DNA of 37,895 nt from an uncultured bacterium (GTDB taxonomy: Bacteria; Patescibacteriota; Minisyncoccia; Phycocordibacterales; Phycocordibacteraceae), in NCBI GenBank assembly GCA_963759775.1, contig CAVXAH010000001.1, positions 104,787 to 142,681 on the forward strand, in the 5' to 3' direction. A program made the translations under genes and the position numbers. This document shows positions 7,750-8,331 of this stretch, in pieces (positions within the stretch are counted from its first letter, which is position 1; every line of letters starts with the position of its first letter). The notes beneath the pieces were generated by a model. That model made no database searches and was not told where the DNA came from. It saw only the letters and a list, made by a program, of their open reading frames with translations.

Positions 7750-7843
7750 GCTCGCACTATAACAAGCAATCGGACTTTCCTGCTCGTCAATTTTCCGCTA
7801 GAATGCCCGCACGCCCTTTGGGGCGCGTTTAGTTAGAAAGTAT

Positions 7844-8140
7844 TCCGGGATAGCTCAATGGTAGAGCAGCGCCCTGTGGCTTACGCAGCTTCCAGAGGAA
7901 ACTCTGGTCGAATAACAAGGTGAATTCGGGGAAACCCTCCCCTGCCAATCGGCAGACGGGCAATCCCGAGCCAAGCTCCGACGCATTGTCGGAGAAGGTG
8001 TAGAGACTATCCCTTCGGGGAGTAGGCCGTAAGGCCGAAGCGCCTTGCACCCTTCGGGGTGATGATATAGTCCATCCCTTTTGGAAAACTTAAGGAACGA
8101 TGTAAGGCGTTGGTTGTAGGTTCGAGTCCTACTCCCGGAG
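7844..8140 (+). tRNA. tRNA-Asn(GUU) interrupted by a group I intron in the anticodon loop
   Basis: Acceptor stem TCCGGGA/TCCCGGA, D arm GCTC-AATGGTA-GAGC, anticodon stem GCGCC/GGCGT and T arm GTAGG-TTCGAGT-CCTAC are all present. The spliced loop reads CTGT|TAA (CUGUUAA, as in E. coli tRNA-Asn) and the discriminator is G. Confidence 0.85.
7878..8102 (+). ncRNA. group I intron, IC3-like (225 nt, no ORF)
   Basis: P1 forms as CUGU/GCAG with a U.G pair at the 5' splice site, and the terminal G precedes the 3' exon. The core strings AATTCGGGGAAACC, GAGCCAAGCTCCG, GAAGGTGTAGAGACTA and CTTAAGGAACGATG closely resemble the Azoarcus and cyanobacterial tRNA introns as I recall them. Confidence 0.8.
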
Positions 8141-8145
8141 CCGAG

Positions 8146-8185
8146 GAAAAATGAAAACGCCCCGCAAGGGGCATTTTCATTTTCT
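8146..8185 (+). terminator. hairpin terminator after the tRNA
   Basis: The stem GAAAAATGAAAACGCCCC-GCAA-GGGGCATTTTCATTTTC has a T-rich 3' arm. Confidence 0.55.
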
Positions 8186-8233
8186 CCGAGGCGAACGGGA
8201 GAAAGCGCGCATGCGCTTACTACCAGAGCTTCC

Positions 8234-8270
8234 GGGGCTTTTTGTTTTTCGAGGATGCGACCGGGAGAAA
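8234..8270. repeat. 37-nt exact repeat, copy 1 (GGGGCTTTTTGTTTTTCGAGGATGCGACCGGGAGAAA)
   Basis: It is identical to 9453-9489. It forms part of ~80-nt units that begin with copies of the tRNA 3'-end 12-mer. Confidence 0.8.
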
Positions 8271-8331
8271 ACAAAGCGAAGCGACTTTACTCCCGGAGCG
8301 CCCCGCACAGGTAGAGGTAATTTGATTTCCC

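Follow-up and report, generated by a model that had tools for sequence, protein, structure and literature searches.

Positions 7844-8140 of the DNA analysed here, a 37,895-nt stretch from an uncultured, ultra-small member of the Patescibacteriota (the window, meaning the whole of that stretch), hold the two parts of a tRNA gene separated by 225 nt, and the question raised by this locus is whether it can still supply a tRNA. The answer reached is that the locus is very probably a functional tRNA-Asn(GUU) gene of the Patescibacteria, the anticodon of which is split by a 225-nt group I intron with no open reading frame (ORF). Such an intron had been put forward in a first-pass annotation made from the letters of the sequence, which proposed as checks an intron-aware tRNA scan, a group I covariance-model scan and a survey of related genes in the candidate phyla radiation (CPR). 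At default settings, ARAGORN reported zero tRNAs across the whole 37.9-kb window; run with introns tolerated, it gave tRNA-Asn(gtt) at 7844-8142, i(35,225). Excision of 7878-8102 leaves a tRNA body of 72 nt (7844-7877 plus 8103-8140) that forms a regular cloverleaf with the anticodon loop CUGUUAA, exactly at the coordinates first proposed. The 5′ exon (UCCGGGAUAGCUCAAUGGUAGAGCAGCGCCCUGU) ends in ...CCCUGU, and the 3′ exon (UAAGGCGUUGGUUGUAGGUUCGAGUCCUACUCCCGGAG) runs from UAAGGCG to GGAG, with the discriminator G73 at 8140; CCG follows, the CCA end thus not being encoded in the gene. The break sits inside the anticodon, between U35 and U36, and the exon-intron boundary cannot slide because a shift of one base ruins the anticodon loop. 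The claim of a tRNA-Asn(GUU) split at 35/36 by a group I intron was borne out by ARAGORN, by Rfam, by a helix map and by covariation with nine homologues.

The insert starts with GGCUUACGCAG and ends with GGAACGAUG, G8102 being its terminal base. The Rfam model Intron_gpI (RF00028) matched positions 7805-8095 with 58.5 bits (E 1.7e-12), above the 50-bit gathering score, and this was the sole Rfam match within the window. The match coordinates do not bound the intron, since P1 and P2 of the model are aligned to an upstream hairpin (7812-7825) that is unrelated, and the 5′ exon is handled as an insertion. The features found that mark a group I intron are thus a score above the gathering value, a U·G pair in P1, a terminal G, a P3/P7 pseudoknot core and a bulged A in P7. 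No ORF lies inside the intron; the only ORF that crosses the intron lies on the minus strand (7855-8274) and has no Pfam match. The lengths of the insertions and deletions seen among homologues are not multiples of three, and so give no sign of coding in the insert. The minus-strand ORF, of 139 codons with a TTG start, covers the terminator, the intron and the 3′ exon of the tRNA in antisense. It is likely spurious, one of those gene calls by which automatic annotation conceals tRNA genes with introns.

All the standard group I elements were placed, with helix coordinates checked against the window sequence (Table 1). In P1, the wobble pair U7877·G7885 marks the 5′ splice site; this pair, the CUGU/GCAG helix that holds it and the terminal G all agree with the first-pass annotation. 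The bulged A8004 of P7 is flanked by G8003 and G8005 and lies opposite C8072-C8073, an arrangement invariant in 10 sequences (the window's intron and nine homologues, described below). By analogy, the G8005-C8072 pair beside A8004 is the presumed guanosine-binding site; in the Azoarcus and Tetrahymena introns, the location of this site in P7 is established. Folding of the single sequence recovered P1, P2, P3, P7.2, P8, 6 of the 7 pairs of P6a and shorter versions of P5a and P9, and the stability of the fold compared with shuffled sequences corresponded to z = -3.1.

Table 1. Coordinates of the split tRNA-Asn gene, its intron and the helices of the intron, in window positions.
Feature	Position	Strand	Sequence, partner or basis
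tRNA-Asn(GUU) 5′ exon	7844-7877	+	acceptor, D arm, anticodon-stem 5′ strand, C32 U33 G34 U35; ARAGORN -i, spliced cloverleaf
P1	7874-7888	+	CUGUG 7874-7878 / CGCAG 7884-7888; loop GCUUA 7879-7883
Group I intron, 225 nt, ORF-less, G to G	7878-8102	+	Rfam RF00028, helix map, covariation
P10	7880-7883	+	CUUA of P1 loop with 3′ exon UAAG 8103-8106
P2 hairpin	7892-7907	+	CCAGAG-GAAA-CUCUGG; GNRA loop L2
P3 5′ strand	7916-7922	+	CAAGGUG; partner 8041-8047
P4	7926-7930 / 7965-7969	+	UCGGG / CCCGA
P5	7935-7937 / 7958-7960	+	CCC / GGG; J4/5 GAAA, J5/4 CAAU
P5a hairpin	7942-7955	+	window-specific; shorter 4-bp version in single-sequence fold
P6 + P6a	7970-7999	+	P6 GCC/GGU; P6a CUCCGAC-GCAUU-GUCGGAG
P7 5′ strand	8003-8009	+	G-A(bulge)-GACUA; pseudoknot with 8068-8073
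P7.1 hairpin	8010-8021	+	UCCC-UUCG-GGGA
P7.2 hairpin	8025-8036	+	GGCC-GUAA-GGCC; GNRA loop; variable-length element of family
P3 3′ strand	8041-8047	+	CGCCUUG
P8 hairpin	8048-8061	+	CACCC-UUCG-GGGUG
P7 3′ strand	8068-8073	+	UAGUCC; J8/7 AUGAUA 8062-8067 directly 5′
P9.0	8074-8076 / 8099-8101	+	AUC / GAU
P9 hairpin	8077-8095	+	CCUUUUG-GAAAA-CUUAAGG; tandem U·U
tRNA-Asn 3′ exon	8103-8140	+	U36 A37 A38, anticodon-stem 3′ strand, variable loop, T arm, acceptor; cloverleaf
Terminator-like hairpin + U-rich run	8159-8182	+	GCCCC-GCAA-GGGGC (8159-8172); 19 nt past tRNA; consensus scan only

Further introns at this site were sought with a fixed-spacing pattern made up of the tRNA-Asn D arm, CUGU and the guide sequence. 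Among the GTDB species genomes it returned five true loci (L029, L030, L031, L032 and L034) and two chance matches, all five true loci lying in CPR metagenome-assembled genomes (MAGs) labelled Saccharibacteria, Parcubacteria or Patescibacteria; among metagenome contigs it returned four true loci (L035, L036, L037 and L041) and three chance matches. L032 and L037 are interrupted by the end of the contig and were not counted as full-length introns. Homologues of the adjoining glutaredoxin-like gene led to two more, L043 and L046 (a further locus, L047, has the same sequence as L046). The P1 loops of these two differ in length, so that the family is larger than the pattern scans indicate. A variable-gap pattern (GGTAGAGCNNNNNNCTGTN{0,6}YTTAN{0,4}RCAG) was also tried on viral contigs and was set aside, as it matched only intact tRNA-Asn genes and, by chance, coding DNA.

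The survey thus provided nine further full-length introns at position 35/36 of tRNA-Asn (L029, L030, L031, L034, L035, L036, L041, L043 and L046). They measure 194-315 nt, each ends in G, the exons around every one splice to tRNA-Asn(GUU), and all nine pass the Rfam gathering score, with 59-92 bits. Near-identical alleles were also present on contigs from separate public metagenome runs. Length varies chiefly in P5a, P6a, P8 and, most of all, P7.2, which takes up 12 nt in the window and more than 100 nt in L036. The intron of L036 (690-1004; ERZ1292623, Hainich groundwater) reaches 315 nt through an insertion of ~100 nt at P7.2, not long enough to encode a homing endonuclease, and is otherwise near-identical to that of L035. 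P7.1 and P7.2 occur in nine of the ten family members; L029 lacks both and has a simple J7/3 like that of the classical tRNA introns. In the homologues, L2 reads GAAA, GGAA or GCGA, and L9 reads GAAA or GUAA. With only AAA as its P1 loop (CUGU|C-AAA-G-GCAG), L046 (2683-2905, minus strand) has nothing complementary to the 3′ exon from which P10 could form; the lineage can therefore do without P10, a helix that is not universal.

To score covariation, the ten sequences were aligned with MAFFT and the helix map was applied to the alignment (an earlier version comprised eight sequences). Standard pairs occupied 95.1% of the pair cells, compared with 30-42% when the partners were slid by 1-3 columns; changes on both sides were seen in 18 of the 52 pairs, and none of 500 column shuffles matched the observed covariation score. 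The four exon pairs of P1, including the U·G, were invariant in 10/10 sequences, and in the eight-sequence set the innermost P1 pair was G-C in seven and C-G in one (L029), with P10 paired in 96.9% of cells and one of its pairs varying between C-G and U-G. Both-sided changes affected all six pairs of P2 (100% paired). P3 was 95.7% paired, its second pair appearing as A-U, G-C and C-G. Compensatory changes were seen at three of the five pairs of P4 (100% paired), one pair of P5, one pair of P7.1 (found in 9/10 homologues, 100% paired) and three of the five pairs of P8 (98% paired). In P9, three of seven pairs were compensatory, the hairpin having Watson-Crick pairs throughout in L029 and complete pairing that includes one G·U in L030. 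The two P9.0 pairs were 100% paired. P6 was invariant in the ten-sequence alignment, with P6a varying in size, and all six pairs of P7 were both invariant and paired in the ten sequences. This pattern is what would be expected of a ribozyme under selection and would be hard to square with a decaying insertion.

The genomic position of the gene also bears on whether it works. The tRNA-Asn gene carries the intron in the same syntenic neighbourhood in the window and in L031, L034, L035, L037, L043 and L046. At that same position, a close relative from a Minisyncoccia MAG (L044:1047-1119, minus strand; GCA_050730815.1, JBOHNZ010000264.1) has an uninterrupted tRNA-Asn(GUU) gene adjoining the glutaredoxin-like gene and Fmt. 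Its sequence differs from the exons of L043 only in a compensatory 31-39 pair of the anticodon stem, and its ...CCCUGU|UAAGG... is identical to the predicted ligated junction. Public metagenome runs likewise hold intronless genes that continue ...CCCTGT|TAAGGCG. Since L044 has no intron, presence of the intron is polymorphic within the clade. The simplest reading is that the intron is an old, mostly vertically inherited resident of the clade with occasional precise loss or gain, both of which are known behaviours of group I introns.

These features are consistent with the standard two-step pathway. The gene would be transcribed as a pre-tRNA ending at the hairpin at 8159-8172, and the intron would fold into the P1-P9 group I architecture. 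Exogenous guanosine, bound in P7 at G8005-C8072 beside A8004, would attack the bond after U7877, which the U7877·G7885 wobble would hold in P1 during this first step. G8102 would next occupy the guanosine site, with P9.0 and P10 positioning the 3′ exon, and the 3′-OH of U7877 would attack after G8102, joining the exons, restoring the loop CUGUUAA and creating the GUU anticodon. Ordinary end-processing and addition of CCA would come last. As judged from its sequence, then, the intron probably splices itself.

Several observations weigh against this account of a working, self-splicing tRNA gene. The P9 helix of the window has tandem U·U mismatches and a 5-nt L9, GAAAA, where the homologues have a GNRA tetraloop. 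The Rfam score of the window is the lowest in the family (58.5 versus 59-92 bits), because the P7.1/P7.2 insert and the misplaced P1/P2 cost bits. The consensus scan recognized no promoter upstream of the tRNA. The view of the tRNA genes is limited to 38 kb of a 594,792-bp contig, and a second, uninterrupted tRNA-Asn may lie elsewhere. Finally, we infer splicing from structure and conservation only, and we likewise infer catalysis, autonomy from protein cofactors and the status of this gene as the only tRNA-Asn copy.

One alternative, compatible with the proposal above, is that the element is a genuine group I intron that needs a protein cofactor or chaperone in vivo. Its P1 has only 5 bp, some homologues (L046) have a weak P10 or none, P9 contains the U·U mismatches, and the extra P7.1/P7.2 domain resembles that of IA-type introns, some of which receive protein help in vivo. 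In contrast, the intron is compact and GC-rich, encodes no protein and folds more stably than its shuffled versions. The GNRA loops L2 and L7.2, together with L9 in the homologues, are candidate tetraloop-helix clamps by analogy with small tRNA introns such as that of Azoarcus, in which GNRA tetraloop-helix contacts typically provide tertiary clamps made of RNA only. A requirement for protein is therefore considered unlikely. A second alternative is that the intron is dead, the locus being a disrupted tRNA-Asn pseudogene while an intact second tRNA-Asn gene elsewhere does the work. This would fit with the 38-kb view of the genome, in which there is no other tRNA, and with the existence of intronless tRNA-Asn genes in related organisms. 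However, conservation of the exons and of the catalytic core extends over ten independent assemblies, and the compensatory changes in P2, P3, P4, P8 and P9, combined with the invariance of P7, the U·G and the terminal G, indicate purifying selection on a working ribozyme. Moreover, the syntenic position has either an intron-bearing or an intronless gene, never both within the flanks examined, and some tRNAs of closed CPR genomes carry group I introns, the tRNA sets of these genomes being complete only when the intron-bearing tRNAs are counted (Lui et al. 2021). A pseudogene is thus very unlikely. That the split gene is an artefact of assembly or binning, such as a chimeric join, could be suspected given the metagenome-type assembly and the fact that genes of this sort are overlooked or mis-typed by ARAGORN and standard annotators, but the chance of this is negligible: identical architecture and exact junctions recur in ten independent assemblies (NCBI MAGs, JGI, ENA and Logan) and on contigs of separate public runs, with conserved flanking synteny, so that these independent recurrences effectively refute it.

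How the functional intron-bearing gene favoured here relates to known introns was examined next to the catalogue of Williams (bioRxiv 10.1101/2020.01.27.920355), which reports a scan of ~80,000 genomes that brought the number of host/site types to 21; IC3 introns occupy all four of the classical bacterial tRNA hosts, Leu(UAA), fMet, Ile(CAU) and Arg(CCU). The first-pass annotation found an Asn(GUU) host with a 35/36 site unfamiliar. The pair does fall outside the four classical cases, but it is listed in that preprint as Asn.4Ug, the seed Pam37.Asn.4Ug being a tRNA-Asn intron at anticodon-loop position 4 (CUGU/UAA) with U-1 and a terminal G. Host and site in the window match Asn.4Ug exactly; they are unusual and already recorded, and the intron is a further example of a catalogued type. 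Both share, besides these features, extra helices between P7 and P3′, and the consensus of the preprint's seed alignment already has two helices there. They differ in that Pam37.Asn.4Ug has a UGUA/UGUA P1 and an additional P2.1-like hairpin, and the sub-lineage of the window a short GCUUA P1 loop with a P10 guide. No structural or evolutionary analysis of Asn.4Ug accompanies its entry in the preprint table. Literature searches on group I introns in tRNA-Asn returned mitochondrial, chloroplast and unrelated papers, and those on group I introns in Parcubacteria anticodons returned nothing. A paper on cyanobacterial tRNAs (PMC5733544), with 22-49-nt ‘introns’ in other tRNAs, was set aside as not relevant.

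When a profile of the window's intron family was run with nhmmer against the seeds of Williams, the highest scores came from Mba55.Phe.2Ug (57.8 bits) and Mga42.Leu.1Ug (51.8 bits), both aligned over nearly the full length, as was Wba81.Asp.4Ug (45.5 bits). Pam37.Asn.4Ug gave 47.5 bits (E 3e-16) from P3 to the 3′ end, its P1-P2 not being alignable, and Dba165.Lys.2Ug gave 32.5 bits from P3 to P7′. The classical seeds matched in the P4-P7 region only, with 29.0 bits for Leu, 24.2 for fMet, 20.4 for Arg and 16.7 for Azoarcus Ile2. Judged by these sequence scores, the nearest relatives are introns in CPR tRNA genes for Phe, Leu, Asp and Lys. These four CPR seeds share with the window family the P3 sequences GGUG...AGCGCC, the J8/7-P7′ sequence AUGAKAUAGUCC and one or more hairpins between P7 and P3′, except that Wba81.Asp.4Ug, unlike the other three, has no P7-P3′ insert. 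They reside in other tRNAs, at anticodon-loop positions 1, 2 and 4, and hence have different guide sequences. The lineage of the window is part of a group of tRNA introns found across the CPR, with P7.1/P7.2 and with insertion points at several anticodon-loop sites.

With the classical IC3 introns, the window's intron has in common a small size, the lack of an ORF, a location in a tRNA anticodon loop, a GNRA-capped P2 and a single P9 hairpin. All four core strings that the first-pass annotation had likened to Azoarcus are present (7923-7936, 7968-7980, 7994-8009 and 8089-8102), and three of them are near-identical to those of Azoarcus: AAUUCGGxGAAACC, GAGCCAAGCU and GAAGGUGUAGAGACUA agree with the Azoarcus olearius Ile2 seed at 13/14, 12/13 and 16/16 positions. 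The fourth, CUUAAGGAACGAUG, matches by coincidence; in the window it comprises the 3′ strand of P9, P9.0 and the terminal G, and its look-alike in Azoarcus lies in L8/P8. Against these likenesses, the classical introns have a J7/3 of 3-4 nt (GA-C in the seeds) with no P7.1 or P7.2, whereas the window has hairpins at 8010-8036. The J8/7-P7′ sequence is AAGGGAUAGUCC in the former and AUGAUAUAGUCC in the latter, the P3 sequences differ too, and, as catalogued in the preprint, the classical insertion sites are 34/35 in Leu and 3′ of the anticodon in Ile and Arg, compared with 35/36 in the window. The earlier label ‘IC3-like’ consequently holds for the P3-P6/P7 core and no further, given the presence of P7.1/P7.2 and the partial matches of the IC3 seeds (17-29 bits, versus 45-58 for the CPR type). 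The peripheral expansion relative to Azoarcus noted at first is real, consisting of two hairpins between P7 and P3′, but is located at 8010-8040 rather than at 8020-8075.

The hairpins P7.1 and P7.2 between P7 and P3′ are shared with the td intron of phage T4 (IA2). Positions 8005-8026 (GACUAUCCCUUCGGGGAGUAGG), covering P7-P7.1, are identical to it at 21 of 22 positions (the td sequence used was 100% identical to T4 records). The td intron differs in lying in a protein-coding gene, measuring ~1 kb and carrying an endonuclease ORF, whereas that of the window is ORF-less and in a tRNA. Searched by BLAST over its full length against 50,697 phage records, the intron gave only short generic matches of the group I core, in phage genes, that did not help to classify it, T4 td not being among the best 25 of 29 matches; outside P7-P7.1, this search brought out no specific similarity to phage introns. 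The intron of the window thus combines an IC3-like core with an IA-type P7.1/P7.2 domain and is not a strict IC3 member. A broader proposal can be made only tentatively, and we regard it as somewhat more likely wrong than right: that these introns form a CPR-specific subgroup in which an IC3-type P2-P6/P9 scaffold carries a td-like P7.1-P7.2 domain (with a third GNRA loop), in which the guide has been retargeted to at least five sites (Asn 35/36, Asp, Phe, Lys and Leu), and which interrupts the only tRNA-Asn gene in the clade of the window.

Azoarcus-like core strings (AATTCGGNGAAACC...GAGCCAAGCT) were also seen in thirteen viral-classed IMG/VR contigs (L001-L013). With ARAGORN -i, the core lay inside a tRNA gene in six of them (L003:11300-11585, L005:4779-5064, L006:8723-9025, L007:9557-9829, L008:2832-3109 and L009:1630-1928), the calls being Met/Ile2(CAT) twice, Leu(TAA) and, less reliably, Tyr and Gln (twice); in the other seven, no tRNA was called. 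Group I introns of tRNA genes thus occur on phage or mis-binned contigs too.

The tRNA in the window is surrounded by ordinary bacterial housekeeping genes, which encode MreB, a MurA-like enzyme, a protein with a GIY-YIG domain, peptide deformylase, Fmt, a ribosome hibernation factor, a DUF167 protein, the glutaredoxin-like protein, a DM13 protein, a DUF1905 protein and Sua5/YrdC. The order MreB-MurA-Def-Fmt-...-Grx-tRNA-Asn is common to L034, L035, L037 and L031, with 60-85% amino-acid identity (tblastx). Named homologues of the glutaredoxin-like protein come from MAGs of Candidatus Paceibacteria, Minisyncoccia, Kaiserbacteria and Parcubacteria, which marks the host as a Paceibacteria-like CPR bacterium, in line with the first-pass annotation; a look-up with the Sua5-like ORF of the window found no contig on record. 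Between the MurA-like gene and that for peptide deformylase, ~3 kb before the intron, is the GIY-YIG ORF (4244-4891, plus strand; Pfam E 1.4e-16). The syntenic relatives L034, L035 and L037 conserve its C-terminal part, and in L046 a GIY-YIG ORF of 81 aa lies close by. The window ORF probably encodes a resident nuclease of a housekeeping type and not a homing endonuclease. Just 5′ of the tRNA (window 7805-7843), the upstream hairpin mentioned above, CGCCC-UUUG-GGGCG, is GC-rich and followed by a U-rich tail. In the Candidatus Paceibacter-like MAG that contains L046 (L046:1-981, minus strand; GCA_035547315.1, DASZVH010000006.1), genes for COX1, COX2 and a SET-domain protein lie <2 kb from tRNA-Asn; to our knowledge, respiratory oxidase genes are not typical in CPR genomes.

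Genes of this kind are easily misread. ARAGORN -i mis-placed the intron and mis-typed the tRNA-Asn of L029 as Thr(ggt), of L041 as Thr(tgt) and of L046 as Asp(gtc); the exon boundaries of these three were set by hand and the spliced forms re-checked as Asn. Such mis-typing is a pitfall for isotype censuses in CPR genomes. Since default annotation misses the gene, a genome of this kind would seem to lack tRNA-Asn, which for CPR bacteria bears on estimates of completeness and on inferences about codon usage. The finding opens no new category of biology. It adds a covariation-backed structure for an intron type so far represented by a line in a preprint table, and shows that the Asn-site type occurs widely among Paceibacteria-like CPR lineages and keeps a stable syntenic position there. 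Its hybrid architecture, with an IC3-like core and td-like P7.1/P7.2 in a small, GC-rich and ORF-less molecule, may interest ribozyme structural biologists. If the proposal of a CPR-specific subgroup were true, every Asn codon in the clade to which the window belongs would depend on the self-splicing of a ribozyme.

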